From: Lytechinus pictus
Taxonomy: Eukaryota
NCBI RefSeq assembly: GCF_037042905.1
Contig: NC_087251.1
Span: forward strand, 14,634,001 to 14,698,000
Direction of reading: 5' to 3'
Length of the DNA stretch: 64,000 nucleotides
Positions 12,984 through 47,322 of this stretch are shown here, piece by piece. The first letter of the stretch is position 1; each line of letters opens with the position of its first letter. A program made the position numbers and the translations under genes. The notes under the pieces are model-generated. The model was not told where the DNA came from. It did no database searches and saw only the letters and a list, made by a program, of their open reading frames with translations.

Positions 12984-13712
12984 TATATGAATATGACTAT
13001 AATTCACCACAGTCAATAAGTAAGACAGGTAAAACATATAAACGTACTGAATGGTATTCAACATTATAACAGGCTTATTTCTTTGCCATATCACTACTAG
13101 TTACTCCCCAATAACTACAGTACGGATAAAGTAAAACCATGGATCTACTACATGTTTTGAGCCTCCACTCCTCATTTTTAAATTTGTTTTGCACCTGTTT
13201 TATTTCTAGTGAAAGTGCATTCAAATTGCTTGTTGCAGATTATCGTGATATTTGCATGAAGCAAGGTCTAATCCCGCACCCTTACCCATTTTAGAAGAAA
13301 ACGTTATTGTAAAATACCTCTGCGTCTCTGCCAACGACCCTCACACGAGTAAAAGTTTTTGCTTTTGTGGCAACAACCCAGCCAACTTTCACCAATTATG
13401 CTGTGGACTTATAATGGTATTCTTTTTCAAGGTTGATTCGCAGCATGTGATGGAAAAGAATCTCTTACAGATAAAACTAAAGAAAATATTCAAAAATATA
13501 TTAAATGAGAAATAAAATCAAATTAGTAATAAAATATTGACTAATAAGCATGAAGAAATATGAAAAAATATTGCACTTTGGGAAAATGATTATAATAATA
13601 ATAATACTGACATTTTCAACAGAATATTTCAAATAATTAACCTGAATTAACTTGATTGTAGTTGATTGCAGAAGTTTCTATATTTGTTTAATAAAAAAAA
13701 TGGCGGATGGAA

Positions 13713-16311: not shown

Positions 16312-19300
16312 AGAAATTGTGATATAAATAATATAAATTGCAATATAATATAAATAGCACTACATGCCCTATTCACATTTAGCTTTTGGAAATCAACAAC
16401 CATGTTGAATGTTGCTGCATGTGGAGTGCTAATCGCGTGCTACTGGAAAAAACATATTTTCCCAAATCTTCCTCTTCTTTTTTACCACTTCTTTGCCTAT
16501 TTCCTTATTTTTTTTATTCTATGTCATGCGGGGGCCTTTGGAAGACAAAAATGCCCCCCCCCCCTTCCTGCTTCCGGTGCATGTGGTTGCACACATGCTA
16601 CACAAATCATTCGTTATCTGTTTATGAGCAATCTTGAAGAAATGCAACGTCATTGTGGTTTCTGACTAGAATGACTTTGCCTCTTAAAAGTCTTAAGAGG
16701 GCCGTCTGCACCATCCCGAAGTTTCAAATTAGCGCGCTATTTCTGATCCGGCAAATTATCCCGATCTGAAAAATCTCGAGATAGTTGGCGGTGCAGACGC
16801 AATTATCGCGCTAGTTCGTAGGATTAATCTCGAGATTGCAATCCCAAGTCAACTCGGGTTTATTTGCAAAATAGCGCGCTATTTTACGAATTATCCCGCT
16901 AATTCGTCGGTGCAGACGCACTCGAGATTGGACTCGGGGTAATTTATTCATGACGTCAGTCCATAATGCAATTCGCGTTCCACTTCCGCCTTGGTCAAAA
17001 CATAAACACGTGCGGAAGTCAACTTTATACATGCGAATAGCGTTCATAAGCAACGATGGTGTCCCACCAGTGAATGGATTTTGGGAGAGACCAGACCGAA
17101 GGGGGAGGCGCTCATCGACGATGGTCATATTCAATAACAACACTGACAGCAGTGTTGTCTTATTCCTTCGCAAAATGTGAGCAAATAGCATTTCTTTCCT
17201 CCTTCTCTCCCTCTCTCTCTCTCTGTCGTTGCCTCCTACTCCGCCATCATATTTAACGAAGAATACATCACTTCTTCACTCGCTGAGCTGAGAGGATTGT
17301 TGCATAACACCGGTTGAATTCGGCGAAAGTGCTAGTGAAAGGAGTACATTGCTTGCATATCGCGGGAAGTTATTCAAAAGCGCGGGCCGTTGAAACTCCA
17401 AGATCCGAAAGTGCGCATGCTCGTAATATCGGGCTTGTTGCCTCGCTCGAGCAGGAATCGCTGTCGTGGAATGGTGCAGACGGGGTTTCTTGAATCTCGA
17501 GATTAATCGCGAAGAGGGCTGATCGGGCTAAAATCTCGAGATTGAGCAAACTCGGGATGGTGCAGCACCGCCTAAGGATACTGACCTCCACCATGTCCAA
17601 GTCTATGATTAAATTCCAGTTAATACAAAAGATGAAATATCCAGAAAAATCAAATTACTTCCTAACATATTTCTGTAATGATTGTAATCAATCAATCTTC
17701 AATTTCGTGGATTTCTGAATATTGCAGGGACATCGGGATGAATGAAGAGTTTGGCTTAGTCAGACATCGGTTACATTGATACAGTCACACCCATGAAGTC
17801 GACTCCAAACCAATCGATGGTATGGCATTCGAAACAATGTAATAGTTTTGATCGATCTGGAGTCGGTGTGGGAGTGTGGCTGTGGCATTTCTTCTATTGT
17901 CATTGGGATCTTTTCAACTCTTTACATCATTTATCGGCAATAAATTCAACCTCATCTCACGCATCAATTGAATCCTTGATACATTCATCTTCCTTTCCGA
18001 TAGTTATTTTCTATCCTCGCTCTGAGTCCATATTTGCTCTATATCCACCCGTTTCGCTTTCCCTCCCCTCTCTCTCTTTCATTATTTCTTTCATCATCTC
18101 TTTGTCCATTTCGGTATCACTTTTTTCTATCTATCTTCCAACATCTCTCTGCTTATCTCTCTTTGGCTCTTTTTTTTTACCGTGTTCGTCTCTCTAACAT
18201 GTTGCTTGTTTGTTTAAGTTGTTTCTCTCTTTTCTTTCTGTTAATGGCTCCTTTTTCGTTTTTAGACTGTCTTAACGTCTGGAGCATCTGAAGTGTTCGC
18301 ACATCTACCCATCTCGTTCATTTAAAAGTATACTTCTTCTTTTTTGCCCACGCGAACTACAATGGGAATTTATTTATGGTCGGCAGACGTGAGCAGTTAC
18401 GCAATAGTCGGGTCAAGATCAAACACCAAATACATGGACAATTTACACAGTATCTGTTTGATTTGCAATGACGTAAAGACGTGACAACGATACAACAGTT
18501 CACAAAGCCTAGGTTGGCTGTTCAAATCCCAAATACGTGGAATCCCTCTCTTCTATAAGCACCGGAAGTAGAAAGTGTTCCACGTTGAATAGTTATTGAA
18601 ACGCTTTCTCTATTTTGATATATTTTTTTCAATTGTGTACTTCAAAGACCAAACAAGCGTTTGTATGTTATAGTCACCCCCCCCCCCCCGATTCACCATG
18701 ATACTTCACCGATATTGAGATGAAATTATTTAGGGACTGGATTGGACTCGTGTGGAGCAGTGGTATGACATAAAAAGATCATTAGGTGGACTTGTTTGGT
18801 ATGATGTAGATTCATGTACACAGTGAAATGATAGAATTAATTGAAATTCTTTATATCCATTTGATAATTGATGGTTGAACATTCATAACGAGAAAATACA
18901 ATGAAAAATAGATTGCGGGAATAGCGTTCACACAAATAAAAACCCAAACAAGACCTCAAAAGGATTTGGTAAAAAGAAAGATCTGAAATTCGCAATATCC
19001 TTATCATTATGAGATGATGAAGATGTGCTGTATATTTTAAGTTGCCTTATTTTGTGAAACGTATAATTTAAAGTAAATACTATTAACATCTTATCTAATC
19101 TTGGATCATTTCATATATATATTGTATTGTCCATGAATTTCTATCACTCATACTGTGTTATAGCTCAATGGTAGTAAGTGGATTTATGTTATCTCAAATT
19201 TGACGTTTCAGATATTATTTCACGATAATTTATAGTTATACAATATATTTCGCATATATTCTTGCGTGTTATTTGAACAAGTATGATATGATGATTGTTA

Positions 19301-19789
19301 ATTATCTGATTAGAGATTTTATGTTTTTTAATTTGTATAGATTTTATATTCTCCATGTTTTTGTGTGATCTGCGGTTCATTAATGTTCTTTATATTTATT
19401 GATTGTTGAGGGACTATTGCTTGTTTTAGGTTCCAAATTGTTTAAATCATGATGGCGATAAACTAATTTCATTCATTTAAGTTCTGAAGTGCCGGGATTT
19501 ACTTTCATTATAATTATAAATCTGTAGCTTTACAAAATACAGCTGTAGGCTATATGAATAAGAAGTAAAAATTGCAAGTATACTGCTTCAAATCATCTGG
19601 TAGTTTTAATCCTGGATTTAAAAAAAAAGTTTCAGCTAAAATTCAGCCATTCAAAAGATGAGGATTATTTTCAATCTCTTAAACTGAGTTTTTAATTGAT
19701 GAAGGAAAACGTGATGAAATGATTTGTTTGCATTTTATCTCATCGTCCGAGGGTGATTGTAGAATGTGGTAAGAATGAGCAAACATGAC
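16312..19789. repeat. Tandem duplication, copy 2 (contains extra MITE)
   Basis: Directly abuts copy 1; only two substitutions seen by eye (14021C/16620G, 15364A/18842T) plus the 879-bp insertion. Confidence 0.97.
16697..17572. mobile_element. PIF/Harbinger-like MITE, 876 bp
   Basis: TAA TSD (16694-16696, 17573-17575); empty site gtctTAAggatact in copy 1 at 14095-14097; imperfect TIR with core CTGCACCATCCCGA. Confidence 0.9.
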
Positions 19790-22056
19790 AAACCGATTTT
19801 TTTTTTAGGCGGCAGTCTCAGAGGACGTGAACAGTTAATCATCAACAACTTGGTTACGCATTGTTTCCATTGGTTTCCGTTCCTCTCATCCTTCTCAAAT
19901 ACTGACAGTGTCATCATTTTCCCTGAAAATTTCATTGGATTGTCCCATCTAGACTGAATTAGCTGCTCTCATGCTGCTGGTATGCTTGACACGGAAGAAC
20001 GCAGACACGTCACATCGTCGCCCGATTATCATTCAGTTTCGTCACCGGGCGACACGTGAAAAGGCACCGCGTAGGTACTCCACTTCATTCTATCTACTTT
20101 GATCTAGAAACACAAAGAGATCCTCAGTCAACATATAGAGACAAATATATTGGTGCATTGTTTCTCAGCAGCTCATATCTGTTTTGACATGGACAGTTGA
20201 TTTTATTCGGACAGTTACATTGTACATTGTGTCATTAAGGTTTAATGATCACGTCGGTATTTTTTAATGAACGTTAATTCATTTGCATCGAAGGTGGCGT
20301 CTACTTTTTAACGCCAGGTCGTGTAAGGTCAACTGTGTCCGGTAATGTGCCTAGATATCACAAGGGAGCACAAGAGTTAAGCTTTCTACAAATTTAGTTC
20401 GGCCAATGATTGATTAGATTTTCTACGCTGTCATTCAGCCGATTTGCAAAGCAGTTCCCTGTTACAGATGTGCCTTATCGAATCATTGTTCATTCCGCAA
20501 AGGTGACATTCGTCAAAGGTAGGGAAGAATTACTGGTTATTATGCACCTTAAGATTTAGGAGTTATGGGGCTCCTCTTTAGTTCTTGCATTCTTGCATGT
20601 CAATGTTTCAATATACCAATTAATACAGTGGCGGATTTAATATAAGAAACTGCATGACTGTGTTGTAGTAAAACAGATCATAAAAGGTTGTGTCTTTCAA
20701 AGCATTTCATATTTCAATGGTCAGATGTGGAATACGAGCTTTCCATCGAACATAATTTATAGCGATCAAAATGGTTTCATCATTGAATCAGATGTAAGCT
20801 TTTAAAACACAAATTACTTTCTATCGAAAAGCCAACGATTAAAATTTCATTTTTAAATAATTTTTCGTTATCTCAAAATGTTAAAGCTCTGTAATTCCAG
20901 TTTGTAAGAAAAGATATCTCAAATACCTATTAGAACATATTTTTTGTAGTTATTATCATAATTTCGTAAAATGATTTATTGATGTGTATCACCAATTGCG
21001 TTCATATTTGTCAAAAATTGATTTTCATTACAAGCATTGAAATTTGGTAAATTGGCCATCTCGTAGCCGTTATCACATAATTCCATTGATCAATATTTCT
21101 AGGAGTAGGGTAATTGCGTCATTTGAGTTCCGGATTACCTTCATTCATGCATGGTTCGTGTGTGAGATTACAGCTACCATTCCATCATCGTGGTATGGTG
21201 GTCTTGAATATTATTATTTTCAATAAATTGCGCCATTTCCCTTCCCATAAATAATTAGTTTCCAGATTGGTACACATGTCCAAAACATGTATCCATCATC
21301 GTTCATGTTTGTAAATTTCTTATTGAATTGCGAAATTTGATTTTATCTTTACCATAAATCTCGAATATAATGGCTCCATATCAGATCTCGAGTACTGATT
21401 TGATCACGAATGTCTGTCCATGGAGCTAACAAATGGTCTGTCTGTGGTTATATCTCTACCGTAATGCGATTCCCTGCCAGTAGCAAGCATATTTGCATTT
21501 GGACTCTTCAGATGGTGGTTTAGATTTTCTCATGTTATAATGAACTTCATCAGGAGTACAATGTATTGAACCCTATTTGATTTTGTAAGTCTATACTGGA
21601 TCAGATGTGCTTTATCATCTGCTCATTAAGACATAATGTGAGTTCAGTAAATTGTAGGTTGCTAAATATTTATATTTGATATACATTTCACGACGATGTC
21701 TGATTTTTTAAATCTGTAAGATTTATGGGACATCAATGTTCGTTTTGGTGACTCTCTATGCATTATACAAGCTAAGTAATTCAAGTGTAATCATTTTAGT
21801 TCGCGGTTGCATTAAGTTCAATCAAATTGATGGAATACTTCGTGGACGCATTTTGTAAAGAAAGGAAAATCTGAATGCAAATGAATAAAAATTCAGGTTT
21901 ATGAATATCTTTCTTTCTTTCTTGACCATATACACGACTGTTATTTTGTATTGCGATTAAATGTATTTTATTACCAATCAAGTACACAGTGTTTCCTCTT
22001 AATCTTCGCACAGCCTCAGATCTTCGAAATCAACTCCTGAATCTTCCTCCTTCAAC

Positions 22057-22257
22057 ATGGTGTCCACCATTCAAACTTTAACCACTGCCACGATGCTAGT
22101 TGTCATGACGTCACATCTTGCCACTGCCAACTTCGACCCTGCGACTGCCATTGATTGCTACGTACACACCGGAATGAAACATGTGGCGGAAAAAACCGGC
22201 TGCGACTCAAGCGTCATCAACGTCCGGGGTTGCTGGGGTAGATGTGACAGTTACCAG
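22057..22257 (+). CDS. GPB5: GPB5-like coding exon 1 (67 codons)
   Basis: ATG at 22057, donor CAG|GTACTT at 22257/22258. An upstream pyrimidine-rich acceptor (ttcctcttaatcttcgcacag, ending 22013) implies an upstream non-coding exon. Confidence 0.92.
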
Positions 22258-25200
22258 GTACTTATCTCGATAAAAAAAATATACGACTTTCATTTTGTAC
22301 TGCCAATTGTACCGCAAAGACTCATGCCCATTAATTTCCACCCTTCTCTCTTGAATACTCCATTTAACTTCTAATATCAACCTAAATCATGCATGCGACT
22401 TTGTACTCAACTACAATATACATTATTGGTTAAAATAAAAGATGATTACACACTTTGTATATTCGGGGTTTTTAAGATCATTATTTACGATTTGTCTCTA
22501 TTTTCTTGTTCCTGACCATAGGTTCCTCTGATTGTTTTTTCGAATAATACAAGATCTCTAAACTAGTAACGCGCATTATCTTGCTAATGGTTATATAGGT
22601 AAATATATGTATAGACGACCCCAATAGAACAATGAGGTTCACAAAAAGTTTATTACTGATTATCAAGTAAAATTTTATGCTGACGATGATGGCACCAGCT
22701 GTTTGTTGGGTGAATCAGAACACAAACCGCGTCTAATGGTAGTAGATTTCAGGGTCCATTAGTAGAGTTACTTAAAAGCAATTTGATTTACTAGTAGCTG
22801 AAGCTGTATGATTTTTGACCAGTATATTGAGGTATGCATTAAGACTATCAATAGACAATAGGCATCCCTAAATGTATTAGCACTGCCACTGATGATTCTA
22901 AAACAAATTAGCCCCAAATTAGCCCATATAACCAAAAAATACCAGCGGCGCAACTACGCTTTTCCTGTATTCTCGTTTCATTGTGTCTGTTCGATTCTAC
23001 ATCCTGAATCTTCCAGAACCTTGTATTCAATCTCTTATCACACTTAGAATAGTGTTAGAATCTTCCCCATTATCGCGCTTAGTTAAATCCGTATCACTTT
23101 TCATTGGGAAAAGGAGGTGGTTGTGCGTTTGGGTATTGGAAGGTGTAAATGGTGGTGATTAAACACAATAAGATAATTGAGAGGCTAACCGGTTTAATAC
23201 TCAGAACTTTGGTTCTCCAGCATCATGGTCGTGTAAACCATTGTCTTTTTCTGGCCTTGGCTTCCCCGGTAAAAACTCGTATGTTCTGTATATTTGGAGT
23301 AGCAACCATCACAAGAGTAAGAATTGTGTTGACAAAAATCCTGTAAGAAATATCGATATTTACCGCATTATTAAATAAAACGACTTGTTCCAAGATGATC
23401 CCAACGGTCCCCAGATAAATTCAAAGGATGTGTTCCTATTTGTTTTGCAATCCTAAGTCGATTTCCGTCAAAAAACATCTAGAAAATGTACGTCCGTCAT
23501 AGCCGACCGTAGTTTAAAAAAAAAGCCATAATTTTTACTCCATGACCAAAAAAATGTATGGGCGCCAACGATGACTTACAGCACAGATTTTCAAAAGGAG
23601 ACCGGTTGTATGATTTTGACGTTTGATTTTTATTAAAATTCGAAATAAAGTTTTGGTGCACACCATTTCCTGTTGGAGTGGTGTGCGTACCTAACCGCTA
23701 TAGTTGAAATAGGTAATTCAAAATAAATAGGCGAAACCGCTTTCCTTTCTTTGAAAGCTAAGCAACATTTTCCATGGTCATGAATATGAAAAGTTTACAT
23801 GGATCCAGCTCACTCTTTTCTCAAAGAATATTTAAGAATTAGTCGAATCCACGTCCTTTGCTTCATAGTATGGTAAAAGCTACACTCTAAATTACAGGGA
23901 TTTAAAATAAGTCCAGATGGACTGTAGCTAGGGACCAATCGATTTCTGAATTTAGTTTTAATCCTAACGACTTAAATTTAAATCTCAAATGATTTAAATT
24001 TAAATCTTTCGAGATTTAAAAATGAATCTTAAGGATTCAAACTAAATCCGGAATTCGATTGGTCCCTAACTACAGTCCATGTGGACTTGTTTTAAATCCC
24101 TGTAATTTAGAGTGTACTTAAATATAGACCTTACACATTGCCGTAATGGGGCCGTAATCGCTCTGCCATAGAGGCTGAATCCATTGCTTGCATGCGTTGG
24201 TGATCTCCAGCTAGCGCATCTCTGACTTCATATATCACTTATGGGAGGGCGCTATGAGATTATGCCGTCATGTTCAAAAGGTCTATTTTCTCTTGACTGA
24301 ATTATTTCAAGTGAGATTGATTTTGTCGTAAAAATTCAGCATTTTTTTTAAAATATTCATTCAGGTTTTCTGCCTTCTCTAAAACCTATAAGATCAGTAA
24401 TGCATATTATATAAGTTCTCCTTTGTCTTGTTTGTCATTGGAAAAAAGTTTATGCAGAAAAAAAGCAAGACTTAAGATTGAAAAAAAAACTTGAGGAAAA
24501 GGGAAAATTGAGATGCGTAAAATAACCTGGGGACACTACTTTCATAATATGCAAAATATTAAGATATGCGGATTTCAGAGAGAAGAATTCGATCCCTTTT
24601 CCCAAGTAACAGGCTCCGTGGAACCGGAGAAAGTACCAACTGTCATTTCTTCTTGGTCAGTCCCGCCCCCCCCCCCCCACTTTCAAAATCGTTCCACGGC
24701 CCCTAAGCAAAAGAAAAAGTAATCCTGTGTCGACAACATAATTGAAACTGACGATGGATTGATGAGGGCCATTTAAAAGTTATCTTTACCTTTTGTAATG
24801 TAGATATTGGAATAGTAAATTTAATCAAATAACCGCTCGATCTCCTCATCCCAGGGAGATTAAGTCTTTTTAATTCATTTAGATGCACATAATACATGAT
24901 CATTGGTCTGATATTTAATTCTTTAAAGTGGTTTTCGCTTAACTCGCCAAAGCTTTGATAATATTAAAAATAATAAATTGGACTTGTACCGCGCTAAATC
25001 TACCATGTAGAGTGCTTAAAACACTTTGATGATACATTCCTTGTTTATTATATTAAAAGCACTAGCGTACCTACGGGGGGGGCAGAGGGGCAGTCTGCCC
25101 CCCTGACGAGCCATCACCCATGCATGTATCCCTGCCCCCCCTGACGAGCTTGAAAGACCTTTTTGCCCCCCCCCCCCCCTGACGAAAATCCTGGAAAATC

Positions 25201-25507
25201 CTAGGTACGCCACTGGTTAAAAGTAAAAACAATCATGACAATGTGACTACGGGAAGTAGAATGTTGTAAATTATTTCATCTCTTGATTTATTTTTACCAG
25301 GTGCCATCGCTTCTTACCAAACTCTTTGATGTCAGTCATCCTGTCTGTACACCGGTTAGCTACAAGAACATCACGATAACTCTGGATAACTGCGCTCCTG
25401 GCATTGACCCGACCTTCTCTTACGTAGAAGCCACCACATGCGGTTGCAGGAAGGTCAGGGGTGGGGCCGTCCACTACGGCTACAGACCAGACTACTTTCT
25501 TCCTTGA
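22057..25507 (+). CDS. GPB5: Glycoprotein hormone beta-5-like (thyrostimulin beta) subunit; spliced CDS join(22057..22257,25301..25507), 135 aa
   Basis: Spliced protein MVSTIQTLTTATMLVVMTSHLATANFDPATAIDCYVHTGMKHVAEKTGCDSSVINVRGCWGRCDSYQ|VPSLLTKLFDVSHPVCTPVSYKNITITLDNCAPGIDPTFSYVEATTCGCRKVRGGAVHYGYRPDYFLP. It has a signal-peptide-like N-terminus and the GPB5 hallmarks CWGRC, HPVC, L.NC.PG.DP...Y..A..C.C. The phase-0 GT-AG intron (22258-25300) follows CWGRCxxxx, the conserved GPB5 intron position. Confidence 0.93.
22600..23100 (-). pseudogene. Possible highly decayed Penelope RT remnant in the GPB5 intron
   Basis: Degenerate WYFL, RIISGS and GAIIVS pieces occur in the order expected for FYxLPK / RPIISG / ILVSxD; frames are broken. 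Confidence 0.3.
23883..24114. mobile_element. Fold-back (palindromic) MITE in the GPB5 intron
   Basis: Near-perfect inverted arms of ~85+ bp (CACTCTAAATTACAGGGATTTAAAA...); TA flanks. Confidence 0.88.
25060..25215. mobile_element. hAT-like MITE in the GPB5 intron, 85 nt before exon 2
   Basis: Ends CACTAGCGTACCTA / TAGGTACGCCACTG; 8-bp TSD ATTAAAAG / GTTAAAAG. Confidence 0.8.
25301..25507 (+). CDS. GPB5: GPB5-like coding exon 2 (68 aa + TGA)
   Basis: Acceptor tttatttttaccag ends at 25300; frame continues from exon 1; stop TGA at 25505-25507. Confidence 0.92.
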   Translation: MPSLLTKLFDVSHPVCTPVSYKNITITLDNCAPGIDPTFSYVEATTCGCRKVRGGAVHYGYRPDYFLP

Positions 25508-28500
25508 GAGTTAGATTGATTTCAATTTATAAGTTTCCTTTGCTACTGAAATGTCTGAATGTGTCGTTGCCTGAAGTCACCACAATGCAAAAGAAACATT
25601 GATGGTTGAAACATGTCCCTGTTTCTTTGCACTTTAGTTGATAGAAGAAAGGGAAAAGTGCCGGTGCATTCTCTAGTTTAGGTTTATTTTCCATGATTTC
25701 CATCTTTTCAACGATTTAATTGTCATTATGGTTTCCGTAGTCGTCATCAGCATCACCCATATCGTTCTCACGAGTATTTATTTTAAGTAAAAGGTGCAAT
25801 TGAATGATACTAAACAATGTATGGTTGGTATTCTGACAGCGTCCATATTAGATGCAATTTGCCACAGACACATTGGACTGCTCCAGTTGTAGTCCAGAAC
25901 TACTCGAACAATTCCCGCTTCCTTAACCAGTATGCAACATTTTGACCATGTAGTGGTAGAACATACAGCCACTTTAATTTACCCAATTCTATTTTTTGCC
26001 ACGTTTACACTAGAAATATGTTACCGTTGAACTATAAAACAGCGCAACGCCTTCGAGCATTCCTGCTTTCCCCAAAAAGACAAAATGAACATAATAATTA
26101 AAATTTCAGTTTAAAAAAGAGTTTGTTAAAAGGTATATGTATCAAAGCTGTTCTACCCTTCATTTGTGTGCAGCTTACTGTCCTGGAGAATAGTCTACTT
26201 TTCAGTTAATCCCAAATTATTTTGGATGCGCGATAATGGATTGCTAGTGCTTTCATCAAGTACAAGAATATTGAATAAGAATTTAAAAAGTGTGGAATGA
26301 AAGCTAGATTTATTCTGAACTTAAAACCAGGTTAATTTACGGATATGCCACCTTGTATAACTACTAAATGTTTAACGAAATATAATCTTGTTCATGAAAT
26401 GGCGTTTTCTGACATTCCACTGGTTATTATGTAAAGTAATAATGCAATATAATATTTATGGTCATGTTATTGAGGATATAGATTTAGTTATTTCCTTAAA
26501 AATATCGTTTTTTAATAAATCACGTTCCTTCATTATTTTTTGGCCCCCTTTTGTTTTATATTATTTATTTTATTAGAAAATAAAAGGTTTACAGCTTACA
26601 CACCTTTCATTTATAACCAGTGTTCTTTTTACTAATATGTTCTTATTATCGTAGTTTTCACAAAACATTTAATTATCCCATCATTACGCTCATTGGTAAT
26701 GTTATTTTCGTTAATACTCGTTTAGATATAGTTATGAAATTTAGTTATGAAGGCTTGATAGTAAAAAGATATTCGAATTTTCATAACTGATTTTTAAGAA
26801 AAATCTTTAAACACTGCTATCTATTCTAATATTTGCATATGAAACTATACAGGAGAAATTTTAGTAGAACGCAGTCTATCATGTGTTTAATATACTTCAT
26901 GTACGAAGATCATGTTAACTGGCAATTGCCAGCTTACGTTTCCATTATTGTATGACAGCGATTAATGACATGAACAACCTTTTGTCCGAGTTGTATCTGG
27001 CAGTTGGTGTATAATGTGGCAGACGATTGTTCATCACTTGTTTTAATAATGGATGTTCTAAAAATTATCAGTACTATCGAATGCATGTAAGTTTTTTTTT
27101 TTTTTCTTATTACCGGTGATGTCACTCACATCATATCTCATTCTAAATCTTGAAGAGAGAGAAATATAGTATTCTGGGGTGTTACGAACGACCAAAACTT
27201 GTATTTCCACTGAATCAAGTTCCCAATCATTTCAAGTGTCATAGGCCAAAGTGGAAAGGTGATTTTAGAATAAAACCCATTGTTAACCAATACTTGAAAA
27301 CAAGTTTCTAAGCTTGATAAGGGTTGCATGAAATACAAATCCACTGACATAGCATGAAAACATTTCCCAGTCTTTCGCACAGTCATGCGTAACTTTGCGA
27401 ACACTTTCATGACACAACCAGAAATGTTATATCACATTATCGTCTTAAAGATGGAAGACTCCGTACTCTCTTTCTCTTTTATTTAATTTTCCTGACGCCC
27501 TCGACGAATAAAGATTTATATTTATTTGTAATTCATGGAAGTTTTAGTTTTTTATGTAACTATAACTGATTAACTGTACCAATATTTGCGGTTTGTTCTT
27601 GCCAATTCGAAGTATGAAGAGAGCCTGAATATCGATTTAAAAATTGTACTCGTTATCATTTCAGAGATATTGCAGATAAATCATTAAGATAAGTTTACCT
27701 TTCTCCGGCCAACAGGCAACAAGCGTAGATTCGAGCAGCAAATTATCCAGGGGGAAGTTGGTATTTGGGGTTACCGTCCGACACCAACCCACCACCCACA
27801 CACACACCCTCACACATATCTACATACAGACACGATTTAATGGTGGAAATCGAGGACATATTTTTCGGAAAATTATGTCATTGAATAATCAAGGAATTGT
27901 GTGTCAGTAGGTCTCTCATACACAAAATGTTATCATAAAATAAAAAATAAAAATATTGGAGTTGAGGACATTTCAACCATACTCCCCATACGATAGAACA
28001 CTTAATTTGGGAAAGTGTGCAATGTATCTGTGTACCGAGGGTGTCATCGTTGTGAAGTGTGGTATCGGTGTGTGTCCTCGTTTTCCAGCATGTGTTAGTG
28101 TACATACCCACCCATACACACACACATTTATAAAGCGTGGCGTCACATATGACTGCCTGTTCTACGGTCAAATGTATGTGGGTTTTTTTTTTTATAGAAG
28201 GACATGATGAGTAATAAATTCTTATAACACATTTTTTTCTGATAATCATTAGTCTGGATGGAATTCATTCTACCCGATCAGTTGTTATTTATGTCGGCTC
28301 TCTAATTTACTTGTAAGTTTATTAGAAGATCAGTGATAATAACATAACTATACAAAGTCTTTTTGTTTATGAAAAAAATTACCTATCTGAACATCTATCG
28401 ATAGTTTAAAAAAAAATCAATATTAGAAGCGTTGAAATTGTTGTTAATGCTCCATTGCAACGTTTATTTGAAAATAATATATATATATATATATTAAAGA

Positions 28501-28654
28501 AAAGTAATGTAGAGGAAATACATGAAAGGAAATTAATTGATTTAAAATGTATGAAATAAATTGTTTTATTGGTTCATCGATTGACTAATTCATTCATTAA
28601 TAGATATATTTTCTATATGGTTTAATTTACATTTTGATTGAGAGATTGACTGAT

Positions 28655-28825
28655 CAGTTGGTCGGTCGGTCGGTCGGTTGGTCGGTCGGTCTGTTGGTTG
28701 GTCGGTTGGTCGGTCGGTCGGTTTGTTGGTCGGTCGGTCGGTCGGTTGGTCGGTCGGTCGGTCGGTCTGTTGGTTGGTCGGTCGGTTGGTCGGTTGATTG
28801 CTTGGTTGGTCGATTGCTTGATTGG

Positions 28826-28852
<27 letters not shown>
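28655..28852. repeat. Compound tetranucleotide microsatellite (GGTC/GGTT)n(GATT)n
   Basis: Direct reading. Confidence 0.95.
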
Positions 28853-28857
<5 letters not shown>

Positions 28858-28900
28858 ATTAAAGAATTATTGGTTAATTGGTGACTTAATCGATTACCCG

Positions 28901-29039
28901 TGCCTCGTTGTATAAAAGTTACCAATGTGGTAACTTTAACATCCAATGATAAATATCAAGAATCCTTGATTTTGATTGGCTGTTCAGCATCGTGGCTATG
29001 ATAGTTACCATAATAGTAACTTTTATGCAACCGCGCCCC
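28901..29039. mobile_element. Small inverted-repeat MITE
   Basis: CGTTGTATAAAAGTTAC ... GTAACTTTTATGCAACCG inverted ends. Confidence 0.6.
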
Positions 29040-29391
29040 GGCCCGTTGAATTTAAGAAGTGATAATTTGAACTATTGATTGATTTGTCTGATTGATTGGT
29101 TTGATTTATTGATTGTGTGTATAAAATGATTAATGGTTTTGATGGATGTTTTTTAGGTAAAATAATCTGGTAGTCTTTCATTTATCGGTTGACTAATAGT
29201 TGGTTAGGTTAGTGAAGATAGTGAAAGTTGGGTTCAGCGGATCGGCTGTTTGACTTCCTGATTCAATTGATTGATTGATTTTAATGCGACACATGATGAT
29301 TGTTAGCAGAAACATTCATTTTTAGATGACAGATTCTGGGAAAGTAACAAGTTATGGAATTAAACTTTGCTTGGTTTGGACTTTCGATTAA

Positions 29392-29769
29392 AGGTATTGT
29401 TTAACTTTGTGAGCAGCCGATTTAAAAAAATCTCAAACCAAGATGAAACATGTGTACAAGTGCATGTATTAGAACTAATAAACCCTGAAAACAACCATTA
29501 TTGAGAATGAAAAGCTAAAACTACAAGGCAAACCCCGATTTTGTAAATAGGCGTCTTAAAGACGCCTAAATAGTACACATAAGTGTATGGGATGAAATTA
29601 AGATGGTGTTTTCGGTCACTTTATATTTCAATTTTTGAAGCACTAAATAATTATTTTCGAACACAATTTTTTCTGGGCTTCATTTTTGTAACATATCACA
29701 GACACAGGTGACAAGTGTGACCTTCTAGCTCAGATTTTAAAAAAGTCAAACCAATGTTAACCAATCACT
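29392..29769. mobile_element. TTAA-flanked (Kolobok-like) MITE
   Basis: TTAA on both sides (29388-29391, 29770-29773); imperfect TIR AGGTATTGTTTAAC / GTTAACCAATCACT. Confidence 0.65.
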
Positions 29770-29869
29770 TTAACTGAACATGAAGTTCATGCTCAATATT
29801 TCAATTTCCGTTTCAATTTTCAGATTGGGATATAAATCATTTAAATATGTTGGTGTTGATGGCTTATTC

Positions 29870-30220
29870 GAAAGCTTTTGATGATATTTATCAAATTTTC
29901 ATCTACTTATTGGTGTACTCATCAGATATATGTCTTTCTATTACATATACAGTGTACTTTAATAAAATGATTGATGTTTTCACATTATGCGAAAGCTTTT
30001 GATGAACTTATTAAATTTTCATTTACTTATTGGTGTACACAATAGATATATGTCTTTATATTACATATACAGTGTACTTTAATAAAATGATTGATGTTTT
30101 CACATTATGCGAAAGCTTTTGATGAAACTTATTGAAATTTCATTTACTTATTGGTGTACACAATAGATATATGTCTTTCTAATATATACAGCGTACTTTA
30201 AAAAATGATTCATGTTTTCT
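29870..30220. repeat. Minisatellite, ~120-bp unit x3
   Basis: Units start GAAAGCTTTTGATGA at 29870, 29991, 30111. Confidence 0.92.
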
Positions 30221-33008
30221 TATTAATAAAATATCAAAAACTTTCCAATATCTCATATCGAATGTAATTTCTTTTTATCATGTTCTTATCATATCGGAGG
30301 AGGTCTAAAAGATGATGAAATAGTTTGTATTGCCTGCTTTTATGTATTACAAATATCGATGAGGATATATGGGGTGCCTCTGATTTTATTTGATATGTTT
30401 AGCTCGTTCCTATGTTACCTTCTCTCACGATGAGATTTGCTTACATATTTAGTTAGTTAATTGGTATTATATCAGGTTATGTAGGCATGTAGTTTTTGAG
30501 GGTGTGCGTAAGGGTGTGTGACGTGGGGTCAGGATTCAGATCGGAATATGGGATACGTCCCCAAACTTTACTGGTGGGAGAGTAATGGACAAACATCCCC
30601 CATGTTTTAAGGTGGAAAAATAATGTATACAAGTCATGTATACATCATGCAGTTGACCGGTTTGGAATCATTACCCCTCCCCAAAGTAAAAGAGACATTG
30701 TCTATGCCACTGTTTAGGTATATTTGAGAATTGATGAATGAGTGTGGACAGTGTGCGTATGTGCGTGTGTTGAGCAAGGGACTTTGATTTAAATCTTTAG
30801 ATTATATGTATGTTCTTGATGGTGATAATATATGGTTCTTGATTGCCTCTTTTGACTAGTATTTATGAGATTAACGCTCTACCTCTTTATGATAATGATG
30901 ATAATCAATAAATGGACAAAAATGCGGCAAATTAATAAATTAATGAATATTTGATTAACAATAAATAATGATAAATGATAGTACATTTTCATTATACTTT
31001 TTTTTTCATTTTAATCACATTTTATAAATTATTTTGGCCTTGTGTGTCTTCAATCAAACATTTTGTTACATTGAGCTAATTTCGGGAAGCTTTAATAAAA
31101 ACTAATGAAATGATTTAAATATTTTCCCCTTTTACAGTGATATTTCGGTATTGTATTGATATAACATTGCATTTTTAAAATTGCAAATCAAAGTCCCCAC
31201 GACTCGTAACTATTCTATTTTTTTAAGTCGAGCAAATCACAATCCACTGTATATTTAACTGTCCGGATATACTGAATCTAAGTGTTTAACAGTCTTCAAT
31301 TACCGAGCTATTGTTCTCTTGAATTAAGGTTTGGCTACATCACCTAGGTTATCAGCAGCATTCCTTACATTGTGGCTCACTCTTTATGGTACAGATCAAC
31401 TTCACCTTTGTTTGTTATGACGTAACACCTCTAAACTATTAAGAGCAGTGATATGAAAGGTCTCCTTGGCCCCGTGAACCCATCAAGAAAAGGAAAAGCG
31501 CCTTCATTGATGAAAAATATGCTAAACCAATAATTACGAAGGATGATGATGTTTTTATTTTGTATATTTTTTTTAATTTTCGCAAATGTTTACACCTGCA
31601 CTTTTCATTTGTAAATTTCTGGACTGTTATAAAAGCTTTTGCGCTTTACTCGATTTTGGACATCCTTTAAAATGAATTTGCGGATTCCCAGTATCGCTAT
31701 CTAGTATCTAATACTTCTTATTTGGGATTGGAGTGTTTTCGAAAAACAAATTAAAAATCAAAAGGTGGACCCAATGTTCTAGCCTTTCTATCCTGGTAAA
31801 TATTGAGTTGAAAACAGGTGAACAAGTCATATCAGTTGACGTCATCCCGTGGACACGCCCAAAATCATACGTCATAGATTTATGGCCAAAGAAAGTTCCT
31901 GTCTCAAACGCCCACTTTCACTCATCATGAAAGTCGGAACTTTTCAAAGGTCAAGTGAAAAGCCCCTTCTATTATCTTTTCTCTCCTCCCCCTCTCTCTC
32001 CCCCTCTCTCTCCCTCCCTCCTCTCTTCCCCCTCACTTTCTCTCTCTCTTTGTCACTCTCTTCTCTCTCTATCTCTCTCCCTTATTAGCTCTCTCTGTAT
32101 ATTGCACACCCTTTTCTATTCAATCTCTTAACTTTACTCACTCTCCCTCCCTTCTCTTCATCCACCTTAAGATTGCTACTCCTTATGGAAAGAAGGAAAC
32201 TTTTTACTTAGCGATATACTGAAAGATATACGCAAAATCAGTTTCATGGGAAAATCAACTCCATTCAAATGCTTTATTTAAGATCGGCCTACTTTATAAT
32301 TTCTATACCTATTGTTTTTTCAAGAATTATAAACTATACTGACATAAACCTTTGATTAAAAACTTACTTACCACGTTGCTACTTTAATTTTTTTTCATAA
32401 AGTTATCACCCTGAATGATTTTCAGCATAGGATTAAAAGAAAATACTCATCTAACTGGACTGTGGTAAAACGGAGGAGACATTGGTCCATTTATTTTTTT
32501 TTTATTGTGAAAAAGTTGTTCTAATCTGGCAGCATTTCTTTGATTTAATCATTTAGAATGTTAATGATATTACCTTCAATGTAACCAATTCCGATTTTTA
32601 TTCTTGTTATTGAAATATAATATTTGTATCTGCATATTTAATAATAATCTCTCCAATATTGTTCAATTTAAATCCTTTGTTAAGAAAAAAAGTTGAATAT
32701 TTATAAGCAAAGAAGAATCACATTTTATCCGCCCATTTTAGGAAATGGCGTTTTAACCCTCCCTTTTGTATCCCTATACCATTTCTCAAATGCCACTTGA
32801 ATATTTATGTCGGTTTTGCTTTCAAATACTTCCTTATTTACTTCGAATTTTAATTCTGGTCTTTCAGCAGCGATCCTCATAAGATTCCATGTCTTCGTTT
32901 TTATATACTATGTGTCTCAATAAGGTCGTTCCCGAACAATTGTTATTTTGCCATGTTTTTTTTATTCTGCCACCCCCTTTATATTATTGTGGTTGTTATT
33001 CTTCTATA

Positions 33009-33762
33009 CAGTGCGTCCCAGAAAAAACGAAACCGAGATTTAGCGATGTTTTATCATAACTTTAATCATAAATAAAATAGACGCATGATTGAGGAAAAAC
33101 AATTCGAAGAAAGGATGCCAAAGACTCATTTGGCGGGGGGTATCTGAATTTCAAAAAGAACATCACATGACTAAAAAGTTCAATATCTTATCTTTTCTTT
33201 GATACCTAAATCACAGAAAATGGTCAAGTAGTAAAAAAGTTATGATCCCTCGAAACAATGCTTGTATTTCCATAATTTCATTAAATTAACGTGTTTTCAC
33301 CGGTTTCCAACTGAAGCTATCGCACGGTAACAAAAGACTTAATGCATGGCTGATCGTCAACAAAACGGAGTGTCAAGTGAGTTTGAACGCTAGCCTGTAA
33401 AACCTCTTCATTTTATGAAATTATTGAAATTCAAGCCTTAATTCAAATAACCAGAACTTTGTTATTTCTTGATCATTTTCTGTAATTGAGGTATCAAATT
33501 AAAGAGCAGATATCGAACTTTTTAAAAATGTGGTTTTCTTTTTAAAACCCAGATACGGCCCGCAAAGTGACTTTTTGGTATCCCCTTTTCAAATTGTTTT
33601 TGCTCACTCATGCGTGAATGAGAAATAATCTAAGTAATTTCAGATGAAAGAGGAGATTCTATGCTTTAAAATGGTAGGTCATTAATTTTGTCTATTGTAT
33701 TTGCGATTAAGTTATGATAAATCATCGATAAATCTCGGTTTCATTTTTTGTGGGACGCACTG
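33009..33762. mobile_element. Tc1/mariner-like MITE, 754 bp
   Basis: TIR CAGTGCGTCCCAGAAAAAACGAAACCGAGATTT with reverse complement at the right end; TA TSD. Confidence 0.88.
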
Positions 33763-34441
33763 TATATATCTCTGTTTCCAATCATGGAACACTTTTAGAT
33801 ATTGTGATTGTTTTGAGATTGGTTTTGTTCACTAAAAAAAACACAAATGTAGAAAAAATTACCACGTTACATGGAAATCATGGTATTAAATGGTAGATAA
33901 TTTAGATTATTAGATAACAATATATTAACCTTGGAAAAGAGAATGATGCCGAACTGGTAGAATGAACGATATATGTTCAAAAGCATTTCCTTTTCTATTC
34001 TGTATTGAATGAAAATAATATGTCAATGTGCGCGGGAGTGTGTGTACATTTTGTGTTGGATTACGTTGATGTGAGATATTTCCAGATGGGTTGATGTGAT
34101 ATTTTCATTTCTCATTTCCACATTCTCCACAAATCTCTCTCCCCCTTACTATCTCTATCTTTCCCTCTCTTTCTCCCAGTTTCCGTTGCATACACAACGA
34201 AGTATACACATAAACACCTTTTTTTTTTACACAAGCATACTTTTAACCACGCGCAAAAGCATCCCCTACACACACACCCCGACACTTATAACACAAAACA
34301 CAAACACGCACTCTTACAATTCCTTCCACATGCCTATGAAATACTCACATACACCCGCACACGTAACTCATTCTGAACGTTTAAGCGACAATTAAAAGAC
34401 AAAATTGAAGAAAAAAATACGAGAGACAATAATTTATATAA

Positions 34442-34447
34442 TTTATT
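34442..34447 (-). terminator. Candidate polyadenylation signal of GPA2-like gene (would give a ~2.6-kb 3'UTR)
   Basis: AATAAA on the minus strand, with an upstream TGTA and a downstream GT/T-rich tract; other AATAAA hexamers exist in the interval. Confidence 0.35.
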
Positions 34448-37026: not shown

Positions 37027-37125
37027 TCAGTCGCCTATTACACAAAGGGAACACTCACAGGACGCCGCTGATTTAAAGGTATCTACATATTCATAATTAT
37101 CCAAGCACTGTAACCGGATATTAAC
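37027..37125 (-). CDS. GPA2: GPA2-like coding exon 3 (32 aa + TGA)
   Basis: Acceptor ttttctcattcgcag; translates VNIRLQCLDNYEYVDTFKSAASCECSLCVIGD*. Confidence 0.92.
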   Translation of the reverse strand, partial: VNIRLQCLDNYEYVDTFKSAASCECSLCVIGD

Positions 37126-40100
37126 CTGCGAATGAGAAAAAGATAAAAGAAAACGAAAGCGTGATAAAAGAGTTGTATCTATGATATTAAGGCATCCATC
37201 AATACTTTATTGGCAGGGGACGGTTAGGAAATTAACATTTTTCTAGTGTCATACCATTCCGATTGAATGTGAGAGTCCATCTTGCCTCTCATTTATACGC
37301 CGTGTTTTAAGTTGGTTTTAGAAAAAGCAAAAAAATCAGATAAACATCATAACAAAAGTTTTGCGAAAATCGAAGAATAAATGAGTTGTGTGACGCCACA
37401 AGCAAGAAGCCAATTTTAAGTAATCGGAATTTCATGCGCTCTTGTTTTTAATAGTTCGTGATTGTTTTATCACACGTCTTTCCAAAGCAGTGTGTATAAA
37501 ATCATGTATATTGAAACACAAGTACAATTATTCCAGATTTTCTAAAAAATAGCAATACGATCTATTTTACATCACATAATGAAGAAGCCGATTGCATGTG
37601 ATATCACCAGGTGTAAACTTTAGAAACTCATACCGCTCTTATGGGTTTTTTTTCAAATATTTCTCTTATTTTGCCGTCTTTATAAAAAACAGCTTAACAA
37701 TGAGGTAGAATAATGTCTACATATTCTTTAAAAAAAAAACAATACCTGCTAGTTAACATATGTATTTGAGTTCGAATTTCTCTCATGAGTGCTGTTACTG
37801 AATCAATCTTTGGCTGCGAACTAACATGTTTATTACGCATTGAAAGTTAACTTTCCCTCCAAAAATGTGGCTAGTAAGTCATGAGGTGGCGCTCACTCAA
37901 GTTAAGTTTCTTGTAAACTTGCAGATAGTCAAGGAAACTATGCAGTGATTGATGATTTTAATACTTCCAAATAATAACTAAAATGGTTTTCAGATAATTA
38001 AAGGCTATTTGAGGATCAGAAAGGAAAATATAAGAACATTAAGATATTGTTAGATTTGTGACAGATCTTGACTTTTTCTTGGTTTGCTATCTTGTTTCAG
38101 AGATTCGTCATTTAACATAGATACGTTAGTTGTAATAACTTGATTGGTATTTTACCCAATGTTCGATAAAAATGGACATGTGTTTTATTTTTTAAGTATT
38201 AGGTATCAATTCGGTCATAATGAAAAAAGATAACAATATCGACATGGGATAAACAATACAGAAAATGGGGGACGGGGGATCTAGAATTAAAGAGTCTTCC
38301 TGGTTACCCTATTTCGACTGAACGTAAAATATGAAATATAATTTATTTCTAAATTAATCCATTTATAAACCTTACAAATTCCATACACTGTAAAAAAAAA
38401 TTGTTAAATTTAACCAGAACGAGTGTAATTATGTTTCCAACCAATTTTGGGCAGTATTTTACCCAATTCGGGAAGCATATTGTCCAGTAAGGTTTAAAAA
38501 TGAGCAGCAATTACTTTAGAATGGGCCAAATTTTCATCACACTGGATAAATAAAAAGGCCCAAAAGAAATGCCAATTGTTGGTTGGACACATGTTTACCC
38601 TCATGGAGCATTTTTACCCAATATTTTTTAGAGTGTAGTGAGCATAAATTGATGACTGACTCATCAAAATAAAAATAGAAGATAGAATAGATTGCTGCAG
38701 CTAAAATTTTTGATACAGAGAAATATATTTCGAAATCCAGTAATAAACCTGTAAATACTAATTTGCGAAAATTTGACTACAATCTGACTGCATTGTATAA
38801 CTGTCCATTTTACGTGAAAATAACATTGTCTTACTATTTTTCTATCTACAGTGAAATGAGCATTTATTAAGAAATAATACTTACATCGTGTGTTGTGGCA
38901 ATGGAACAACATGAGCCATGTGTTGTAAAGATTTGTGTATAGTCGCTGTTTTCAAGTGTAGCCAGGTTTGATGGATATGAATAAGACTGGCAGAAACCGC
39001 GGCATGCATTCATTTGAACTTTAGTTTCCCTACAACCGGGTATCCGAACCTTCTTTGTGTAACCTGCAGAATAAAAGGAATAAAAATGAAACGACATGAT
39101 ATAAGGTATGGAAATAAATGCAGTTTCAGAGCTCATCATTCTAAGTGGTATACTTGCAAGGCCGTTTGTTACGGTCATTTCATTCTTTCAAGAAAATGTA
39201 TTTTTTATCAATTCGGTCTTTATAAGAGAGGATGATTGATGTTACTCAGGATTTGACAAGAAAAAAAATGCACTTGATGCCATTTATTTTGTAAATCGTT
39301 TAGAATATTTTTGCATTCCATGCAATTTATTATGAATATTTTATGATTTTTGTATGAAATAAAAAAAATGAAAATAATGGGACCATTGACGACGAACGAT
39401 CACAACGAGGAAACCACTTTCCAAATTATATTGATACCAAAATATTTAACATCTAACTTTCGTATGGAACTTTTATCCAAATTACAAAGGATTTCTTTTA
39501 AATATTTTCAGAAATCGAATGACCTTTACACATCATTGGTATCTCTAGAAAAAAATTCGATGCCTTAAACAGCAGTTTCACCACTTTCGACTTTTACTAT
39601 TATTCATACACAGGCATTTGAGTACACTATGAGTGGGCAGTGTTGGAGATGAAATGAAAGGTAAATAGTATGTTCTCTACATTAAATTAGAGGTTCTTAA
39701 ATGTCCCTTGAGTGCATTAAGCTAATCGTTAAACCAAATATAAAACTCCAGAGCGATTCTGAATTCATACTTTCTGTCTCTTCAAATGTCATATGTATTT
39801 ACTTAACACATTTAGAAGTCTTGATTCAATCATTTGATTAGACAAAAGCATGGGAGAATGAACAAAAATATTTTTGTTTTCTTGTTTTCTTATAGTCAGT
39901 TATAACAAGTCTGTATAAGAGTTTACGCATTATTAGGACAATATGATGTAAAAACCGTGGACATGTGTTTATGACTACTATATTCTATTCTAGAGCGATG
40001 TTTCAGGTGACAGTCTAATGACGCTATTGGCAAGCCAAACAACTCCTATGCCGCCAAGTCCAGCTTTAAAAGATGAGCGAGAGGTTTCGCGTCCCAGTGG

Positions 40101-44731: not shown

Positions 44732-44792
<61 letters not shown>

Positions 44793-47322
44793 AATACAAT
44801 ACAATTACAATACAATTTTTATAAATAATTTCAAGAATTTCTCATAGGTTTATTATCATTATTATTGCTCTACTCTCCTCCATACATTATTAACAGTTGA
44901 TTTCAAGATTTGGGAGGCCATTGTCACCTCCTTTTATCGAGATTTATTTTCTTGATATATTATAAACCTTTATCCTTTCTATTCTTGCATTTTCATGATT
45001 GTGGTGGCGTCATAATAAGTGATTGTTACGTAACAATGATATCCTCACGCGATAATTTTTACAGCCTGCGCCTCCAATATGCTTTTTTTATTATTATTAT
45101 GATGGTGATGCTGTTTTGTGCGCGGTTCCATGACTACCACAATCATGAATGTTATTATTTCAGTTCTTGTCTCTGTGAGCTTTATTGTATCCCTGAGGAA
45201 GACGTATGTTTAACGTCGAAAATTTGGAATTCAAAATAAACTGTTGGAACTAAGTACAATGCATTACCACTTTGCCTCATTAATATCTTCTATGTCCAAC
45301 ACGCGGAACGTAATATCGTTATATATATATATAACGAGAGAGGCGTGGATATATGTACCAATCGCTTTGATCATTGTTTATAATATATGTGTGAAGAGTA
45401 GAGTAGAATCAAGGATGAAGCAAAGTATACACTATGTTGTAAAGCTTTCGGCCCTGGCCTTCTTCAGTTTTTATTTGCTAAACAAAACAATCGTTATATA
45501 TATATATATATATATATAAATGAAAAATGTATGAAAAATGTTCTATGAGGCGGTCGTAGAGCTTCAAAATTTTACTCCTATATTGGTCAAGCTTTCGATC
45601 CATGCGGGTCTTCATCGGGACGAGTGTGGAGGTCCGGTTGGTCTACATCTGAGATTTTGAGAAGTAACAGTGATTCTTAACGATCTGTGTTAAGTGGCTG
45701 TGGCGTCATATCCGTGTGTGTTTGGTGGTGGGGTGTGAGTGAGGGTGTGCGTGTGTGTATGTGTGTGTATGTGTGTTTTTTATCCTATTCTTTACAATCT
45801 ACTTTGACAAAATATCTGACATTCATTTGTACACGTAGAGGATGGACACGCTTTTTCCATTATACATTTAGTTCGTGTTCAACTAAGTACTGAATCACGA
45901 AATTTTGATTTGTTAATTGCTTTTTTTTTTGCTTTGGAGGATATCCTTCATGAAAAGTGTCCGAAAATGGGGGATTTTTCATCCCCGTTAAAAACATAGG
46001 TAAACTAGTGTAAACCGTTCGGTTTATAATATAATCTCTATTACTTAAGTAGTAGCCTCACAAGATACAGTCGATGAGCATGTTTTATCCGTCTATATCG
46101 ACCGTAATCTATGATCATCCAATAATATGCACTAAATCTATCTGAATATCAAAACTGAGTCTTAAGTTACCTGTGGTTATAGAGTGGGTGTGTGGTAAAC
46201 CAATGACGGGGGAGGGAAGGAAAAACAAACATGCATCACAAAATATAAAAATGTTAGTTCAGTATAAATTCTCAGTCTATCATATCTGCCCTAAATTGAG
46301 GAAAAGTACACCCGAAGATAGACCTTTAAACAGAAAGATTAAATATCATATAAACACAATATTGTACATTATAATATGAATAGTCAAATAACTTTTGCAT
46401 TGCAGGTCAAGATGAGATAAGTTTGCGGATACCCTATGAATCCGCCAGAGTACATAGCTATACAGTTTTGCAACATAAAATAAAACGGCTGTCACATGAA
46501 ATGCGTTTGTTACTATTGTTACTAAACTTTGCCTCAGATTTTTACTATTCAAGAGATAATGCACTTTGAATCATTTACATTTTTCGCTGCCTCTTTCTCA
46601 TATTTCATGTTTTTTCTGCCTCTCTCTCTCTCTCTTATTATCATGTTTCAATCATTTGCAAGTTACTAATTACGACCTAGGACAACCTGAAAATTAAGCT
46701 GAAAAGCACCACTTTATAAGAAAATAATTTAAAAGAATGAAAGGGAGTTCAAAACTTCGTCAAGATTTTCACCTTAGAGTCTAGGACGAAGCTGCTTTTT
46801 TGATTCACTAATTTTCAACAGAGACTTCTTGGTTGCTCTTTGTCATGAGAAAACTGACTGATACCGAAAACGATTTCCTCCAAATAGAGATAAATAATAA
46901 TTAGAACATTTCTATTCTCCGACAATACTTTCAACGAGTAAATGTTTGATCCTGGAAATTTGTTAAATCTGAAATAATGGAGTATATATTCACAGCTTGT
47001 TCTTTGTCATTAAGGGTGTTTCACAGATCATTTTTTCCGTACGTTGTGGAGTGATAAGACCCTATTGACTTAAAAAAAAAGACTAAACTCAGTCTTCTTC
47101 AACGAATACTCTTGAATTGTAATTAATAGCACATAGATACATTTTTTAGATTAGTCATGGTTTTTTAAAGAACCTTGGGATTCATAATATCAGATGGAGA
47201 ATGTACCTACCGACAAGATGACATCCGGGACTTTCCCAGTAATGTGCATGTGTTAGCATAGGAAGCCATAAGCCCAGTAGCACCACGAGTACACAGGCCA
47301 ACATATACGAAGACAACTTCAT
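37027..47322 (-). CDS. GPA2: Glycoprotein hormone alpha-2-like (thyrostimulin alpha) subunit; complement(join(37027..37125,38885..39063,47211..47322)), 129 aa
   Basis: Spliced protein MKLSSYMLACVLVVLLGLWLPMLTHAHYWESPGCHLV|GYTKKVRIPGCRETKVQMNACRGFCQSYSYPSNLATLENSDYTQIFTTHGSCCSIATTHD|VNIRLQCLDNYEYVDTFKSAASCECSLCVIGD. It has a hydrophobic signal peptide and 10 mature Cys with GPA2 motifs PGCHL, NACRGFC.S...PS, CC, V.I.LQC, SA..C.C..C. Phase-1 and phase-0 GT-AG introns join in frame. Confidence 0.94.
38386..38635. mobile_element. CAC-ended MITE in GPA2 intron 2
   Basis: Ends CACTGTAAAAAA / TTTTTTAGAGTG, TA flanks. Confidence 0.65.
38885..39063 (-). CDS. GPA2: GPA2-like coding exon 2
   Basis: Acceptor ttccttttattctgcag; donor GAT|GTAAGT; lies within ORF 38867..39178. 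Confidence 0.93.
43910..44290. repeat. Purine-rich low-complexity tract
   Basis: GAA/AAAG-rich; generates spurious F/L/S-rich ORFs on the minus strand. Confidence 0.85.
44735..44790. repeat. (TA)n microsatellite
   Basis: Direct reading. Confidence 0.95.
45190..45621. mobile_element. Penelope-like retroelement terminal remnants with three minimal hammerhead-like cores
   Basis: CTGAGGA-A-GACGT..ACGTC-GAAA (+, 45193-45225); CTGAAGA-A-GGCC..GGCC-GAAAGCTT (-, 45467-45442); CCGATGA-A-GACCC..GGATC-GAAAGCTT (-, 45618-45589). Confidence 0.6.
47211..47322 (-). CDS. GPA2: GPA2-like coding exon 1 (signal peptide to PGCHLV)
   Basis: Hand translation of the minus strand; donor G|GTAGGT at 47211/47210; acceptor ttttttccag (AG at 47354-47353) lies 30 nt before the ATG. 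Confidence 0.9.

Follow-up and report, generated by a model that had tools for sequence, protein, structure and literature searches.

Eight-cysteine beta subunits of the GPB5 type are already known from echinoderms. Semmens et al. 2016 (PMC4772807) gave eight cysteines for ArGPB5-1 and ten for ArGPB5-2 and -3, and Zandawala et al. 2017 (PMC5627052) described eight, with the final two lost, in O. victoriae GPB5.1, A. rubens GPB5.1, and S. purpuratus GPB5, stating that the structural effect of the loss is hard to predict. The eight-cysteine state of GPB5.1 is real and has been in print since 2016-2017, and the protein likely still serves as an ordinary subunit. A sea cucumber GPB5 with nine cysteines was reported by Chen et al. 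2019 (PMC6586643). According to the survey of Veenstra (PMC8286064), most echinoderms have one ortholog of the GPA2/GPB5 receptor.

The loop closed by cysteines X and XI of gonadotropin beta chains is known as the determinant loop. In the account given in PMC4341566, the X-XI bridge is termed the tensor, and GPB5 is without only cysteines III and XII. The accepted origin of GPH-beta is a vertebrate duplication (PMC9910494).

The closest system of solved structure is C. elegans beta5 (GPLB-1; PDB 8ENB chain B), which Gong et al. (PMC9910494) describe as having four disulfides and being without the same C-terminal linkage. Together with alpha2 it forms a heterodimer in solution and in the crystal, in which 2,895 square angstroms are buried and reciprocal strands at the knots hold the dimer (PMC9910494), and this heterodimer activates its LGR (PMC10319355, PMC12753827). 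C. elegans beta5 has the four disulfides that are predicted for GPB5.1 and is like it in missing the same C-terminal bridge, and unlike it in that the heterodimer has been solved, the receptor has been tested, and the C-terminus is a helix. The bridge was likely lost independently in the two.

A GPB5.1 gene in Lytechinus pictus

We analysed a stretch of 64,000 nucleotides from Lytechinus pictus (hereafter, the window). It contains a GPB5.1 gene in which two coding exons on the forward strand, 22057-22257 and 25301-25507, encode a protein of 135 residues. Its features are as follows.

22057..22257, + strand: coding exon 1, with a hydrophobic N-terminus and Cys1-Cys4, including the C-x-G-x-C motif
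22258..25300, + strand: intron, phase 0, GT..AG, at the same protein position as the intron of the 10-Cys paralog
25301..25507, + strand: last coding exon, with Cys5-Cys8, the sequon N90-I-T, the tail, and the TGA stop
25439..25447, + strand: Cys7-Gly-Cys8 (residues 114-116)
25454..25456, + strand: Val119 at the Cys9 position; the GT of this codon is a donor-like site, whose use was not seen
25475..25498, + strand: conserved tail motif YGYRPDYF; Tyr126 is at the Cys10 position
25508..26542, + strand: 3' untranslated region, following exon 2 without interruption in one transcript contig, with AATAAA at 26514

Cysteines occupy residues 34, 49, 59, 63, 83, 98, 114, and 116, with none past 116, and window 25439-25507 translates as CGCRKVRGGAVHYGYRPDYFLP followed by the stop. 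The top database match was 'glycoprotein hormone beta-5-like [Lytechinus pictus]' at 99% identity, and exon 2 matched the Pfam Cys_knot family with an E-value of 4.2e-05. An earlier note on this DNA had claimed eight cysteines, the last pair lost and none following C7-G-C8, in an open frame that keeps the knot cysteines and a further pair. The two-exon translation agrees with this, as does database protein P0006, which is consistent with the translation and 100% identical across exon 2. Cys1-Cys8 are all present, namely the six knot cysteines with C-x-G-x-C and C-x-C and the L1-L3 pair, their bonds being assigned from homologs. The predicted model has an N-terminal hydrophobic helix at residues 3-22, and the hydrophobic N-terminus of exon 1 is likely a signal peptide. 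The Cys-Cys doublet found before loop 3 in GPA2 is absent; here the sequence is H-P-V-C, with a single cysteine.

The protein is like the echinoderm GPB5.1 subunits (ArGPB5-1 KT601723, O. victoriae GPB5.1, and S. purpuratus GPB5) in its eight cysteines with the last two lost, in the H-T-x-M-K-H that follows Cys1, and in the tail end Y-x-Y-R-P-D-[YF], and differs from them only in species-level substitutions. XP_011670839.1 appears to be the S. purpuratus GPB5 of PMC5627052. What the earlier note had presented as a structurally distinct subunit is a member of GPB5.1, a published and very old paralog class. The canonical 10-Cys GPB5 (echinoderm GPB5.2, amphioxus, vertebrate GPHB5) shares the Cys1-Cys8 spacing, the intron position, and the linkage to GPA2. 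However, the C-x2-C9-x6-C10 pattern of this type is absent after the knot of the L. pictus protein, which has Val119 and Tyr126 instead, and the deuterostome 10-Cys tails compared are mostly 13-14 residues long, versus 19 in L. pictus GPB5.1.

Transcripts and the donor-like site

The RNA sample consisted of five contig runs and three raw-read runs, with 21 runs listed. In run X1, a 1897-base contig joins exon 1 to exon 2 over a GT..AG skip and from there matches the window without differences up to 26542. The 3043-base intron skip itself was seen in two sequences, an X1 contig and an X19 read. The same exon 1-exon 2 join was found in runs X5, X9, X12 (organism B), and X15, where the exon-1 letters stand as loose ends (4/4). 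Contigs from the same organism had no base difference at the tail codons. Raw reads were sparse, with one spliced read in X19 and none in X20 or X21, about 6% of each run having been read. None of the listed database holders of the stretch was an RNA record, which is uninformative on expression; the contigs are spliced.

The donor-like AAG|GTCAGG to which the earlier note had pointed near 25453 does exist (25451-3|25454-9). Used as a donor, it might lead to an alternative last exon restoring Cys9 and Cys10 in the main isoform, and transcript contigs, which drop rare isoforms, would be compatible with a rare one. However, all five contig runs (five studies, two organisms) read through 25453 and the stop codon, with neither a joint nor a loose end at that site, so the rescuing exon was not seen. 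Moreover, the corresponding codon of S. purpuratus and Diadema is Ile, which cannot start with GT, and the part that is conserved is the read-through tail. Among 495 AG sites in 25501-37000, three give C-x5-7-C in their first codons; canonical spacing would require Cys right at the start, and no site offers this. We consider such an exon in a main isoform extremely unlikely.

At the 5' end, one transcript contig has 408 extra letters that fall outside window 21000-22011, and thus an upstream exon is likely. Just beyond the 3' untranslated region, a second X1 contig, unspliced, of 1776 bases and similar depth, covers 26687-28447 and is perhaps a longer 3' untranslated region. Within the intron, several short repeats at 23883-25215 pull in reads from elsewhere; these include an inverted-repeat element at about 23900-24110 and a poly-C/poly-G element at about 25060-25215.

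Conservation and age of the loss

The proteins of all four named echinoid species, L. pictus, L. variegatus, S. purpuratus (87% identity to the L. pictus protein), and Diadema setosum (63%), have eight cysteines and the same tail. Orthologs sharing the state, together with the transcript contigs that agree at these codons, show that it is not a sequence error. The A. japonicus protein P0076 also lacks Cys9 and Cys10 and ends in Y-D-Y-R-P-D-Y-Y-I-V. As given in the published supplements, the C-terminus is Y-S-Y-R-P-D-Y-F in starfish GPB5.1 (Fig. S20) and Y-S-Y-R-P-D-F-Y in two brittle star GPB5.1 proteins. Since echinoid, holothurian, starfish, and brittle star proteins agree, the loss is old and shared.

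Exon 2 differs from that of organism B by five synonymous changes over 53 sites and two conservative non-synonymous changes over 151 sites (I91V, R117K). This corresponds to a dN/dS of about 0.13 (Fisher p 0.014), from a small sample of just seven changes. Judged by these substitutions, exon 2 is under purifying selection. The missing pair could also reflect local decay, polymorphism, or assembly error, and the low depth in the three raw RNA runs would fit such an origin. Yet echinoids, a holothurian, asteroids, and ophiuroids all share the state, which, together with the open frame, the dN/dS value, and the spliced transcripts, leaves this explanation with a negligible likelihood. The loss was, as the earlier note had supposed, concerted and not a matter of decay, and it was selected. 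None of the three outcomes that the note had named against its reading was found, these being a splice restoring the cysteines, orthologs retaining them, and a lack of expression.

Some database records call for separate mention. P0076 of A. japonicus has an extra cysteine (H-P-C-C, i.e., C-C where GPA2 has its doublet), giving an odd cysteine number, and the RefSeq model P0012 of this species ends before Cys8, while P0076 carries the full tail. P0004, a 161-residue form running past the stop, proved to be the S. purpuratus tail plus a Trp at the stop position and was dropped; its extension presumably results from a gene caller taking TGA for Trp.

A tree was built from the Cys1-Cys8 region only, leaving out the tail (40 rows, 93 columns). 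It included 30 of 66 search matches, nine other proteins, and the 10-Cys paralog of L. pictus; long, fragmentary, and redundant rows were omitted, and the starfish and brittle star GPB5.1 sequences from the literature were compared by eye, outside the tree. The seven rows without Cys9 and Cys10 formed one clade (96/94), which includes P0011 (XP_078001197.1), an unchecked gene model from the database for the hemichordate Glandiceps talaboti. The 10-Cys paralog grouped with echinoderm GPB5.2 (98/93). P0022 is a partial, unnamed protein. An echinoderm-only duplication, i.e., a clade without the hemichordate, was rejected with a p-AU of 0.032, for a group named after the tree had been seen and over 93 columns. 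We infer from these sequences that a single duplication probably preceded the split of echinoderms and hemichordates, and the loss would likewise date from before this split because P0011 is itself a member of the clade. P0011 is a hemichordate eight-cysteine GPB5 whose tail departs from the motif at F-R-V-S, possibly where the gene model runs into an intron.

A cluster of GPA2 and GPB5 genes

A search of the L. pictus genome itself returned at least two GPB5 and at least two GPA2 genes, with all four of the GPA2/GPB5 genes below lying on C7 within about 145 kb. The GPA2.1 and GPA2.2 labels were assigned by eye against the published starfish and brittle star supplements.

C7:14536552-14538709, - strand: 10-Cys GPB5 (GPB5.2), a separate locus about 120 kb from GPB5.1
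C7 14618.2-14626.0 kb, + strand: GPA2.1-like gene, about 30 kb upstream of GPB5.1
Window 22057-25507, + strand: GPB5.1
Window 37027-47322, - strand: GPA2.2-like gene, convergent, 11.5 kb downstream of GPB5.1 and its nearest candidate partner
Window 37027..37125, - strand: last exon of the GPA2.2-like gene, matching P0009 (S. purpuratus GPA2) at 32/32 residues
Window 38885..39061, - strand: its middle exon, ends approximate
Window 47209..47322, - strand: its first coding exon, 97% to residues 1-38 of P0009

The order GPB5.2 / GPA2.1 / GPB5.1 / GPA2.2 looks like a duplicated alpha-beta pair, and the intron position is common to both GPB5 genes. Since a separate 10-Cys GPB5 lies in the same cluster, this animal also retains the canonical subunit. 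Two further genomic matches to exon 2, L003 and L004 (E 0.16 and 0.76), had no knot pattern and were dropped. Elsewhere in the window, 14095-16312 and 17573-19790 are near-identical direct duplicates (99.96% over 2218 bases), as are 13710-14098 and 16309-16697 (99.5% over 389 bases). These duplications are either a very recent tandem duplication or an assembly artefact.

The tail and the lost last disulfide

The lost pair is the equivalent of the gonadotropin beta loop cysteines, as the earlier note had held, and corresponds to the X-XI bridge (PMC4341566). Alignment of the tails indicates that the pair was replaced in register, with a hydrophobic residue taking the place of Cys9 and Tyr that of Cys10. 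Position Cys8+3 is Val, Ile, Met, or Pro among GPB5.1 proteins: Val119 here, Ile in most of the orthologs compared, Pro in the hemichordate, and Met in brittle stars. Cys8+10 is Tyr in 5/5 divergent GPB5.1 rows, and Cys8+8 is Thr in four of these five and Ser or Thr in 29/39 ten-Cys tails. Conservation differs along the exon, with identity to four divergent orthologs of 0.62 in the tail motif (residues 126-133), 0.42 in the non-Cys core of exon 2, and 0.11 in the linker. The motif Y-x-[YF]-R-P-D-[YF] is kept in four echinoderm classes, and such a conserved new motif suggests that GPB5.1 has a role beyond that of the 10-Cys copy. A literature search covering few subscription journals did not find the in-register replacement, the tail motif, the hemichordate member, or the four-gene cluster.

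In a more far-reaching reading, the deuterostome ancestor would have duplicated a GPA2/GPB5 pair, of which GPB5.1 would be the surviving copy, and the GPB5.1 tail of 19-23 residues, ending in R-P-D-Y, would be a seat belt without a latch, homologous to the strap of vertebrate gonadotropin beta chains. Among the proteins collected, RPD[YF] is confined to GPB5.1 tails and to lamprey GpH-beta, in which it stands just before the latch cysteine; human FSH-beta has P-S-Y before its latch cysteine. The search itself selected the lamprey match for having a similar tail, and the lamprey R-P-D-Y is out of register with the GPB5.1 motif, three residues further from the knot. When a GPB5.1 profile was run on human beta chains, the best stretches ended at positions 122-129, not reaching the seat belts, and a tree test of GPH-beta as sister to GPB5.1 was uninformative (p-AU 0.42). 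Tail length is weak evidence for a seat belt because 16/39 ten-Cys tails have at least 25 residues, and many protostome-type GPB5 proteins have long tails. Vertebrate seat-belt beta chains (lamprey GpH-beta, FSH-beta, hCG-beta) share the fold of GPB5.1, whereas their total of 12 cysteines, with the latch III-XII and the tensor X-XI, is absent from GPB5.1, including all four of these cysteines. Homology also runs counter to the accepted origin of GPH-beta in a vertebrate duplication, and we regard it as very doubtful. If true, the seat belt would predate vertebrates, and echinoderms would be a living intermediate in which the alpha chain is wrapped without disulfides.

Fold, partner and receptor

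The predicted monomer has a mean pLDDT of 81, with a confident knot and a poorly resolved tail (64 and 48 in the last two blocks). The model folds as a cystine knot, and its structural matches include alpha2/beta5, hCG, TSH, and FSH chains, with the highest query TM-scores (0.56-0.63) to the hCG, TSH, and FSH beta chains. Our literature search found no measurement of pairing or receptor activation for any echinoderm GPB5. The earlier note had inferred altered dimerisation or receptor specificity, for which we found no support: the loss does not in itself imply altered dimerisation because C. elegans beta5 pairs and activates its receptor without the same disulfide, and most echinoderms have a single receptor.

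We estimate a probability of roughly three in four that this is an intact, transcribed GPB5.1, an ancient eight-cysteine duplicate of thyrostimulin beta, which likely pairs with GPA2, with the ordinary GPA2/GPB5 receptor as its likely route of signalling. The C. elegans precedent and the single receptor ortholog of most echinoderms lead us to propose a four-disulfide beta subunit that pairs with GPA2. This subunit would be secreted and would contain three knot disulfides and one L1-L3 disulfide. Its knot strands would bind GPA2 non-covalently, in the manner of C. elegans alpha2/beta5, and the dimer would act on the ordinary GPA2/GPB5 receptor. The aromatic tail may serve as a binding surface, for the alpha chain or the receptor, in place of the small disulfide loop.

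Alternatively, GPB5.1 might be specialised, its new tail altering the choice of partner (pairing with just one of the GPA2 subunits, or with itself as a homodimer) or making it act at the shared receptor as a biased ligand or an antagonist. Conservation of the motif, and not of the linker, over four echinoderm classes would fit this, as would the retention of the gene in a genome that also has two GPA2 genes and a normal 10-Cys paralog; subunit-independent roles are allowed for in reviews (e.g., PMC4341566). Nevertheless, the bridge is dispensable in C. elegans, there is one receptor ortholog in most echinoderms, and the proposal overlaps with the reading set out above, the difference being one of degree. 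We therefore judge specialisation unlikely.

Implications

As found, L. pictus GPB5.1 is the rediscovery of a published paralog and in itself matters little. For a single receptor, echinoderms seem to have two alpha subunits and either two or three beta subunits, and the hemichordate member would push the duplication back to the ambulacrarian ancestor. The conserved tail provides a concrete target for pairing and activity tests. If this tail wraps the alpha chain, it would bear on the origin of the vertebrate seat belt.
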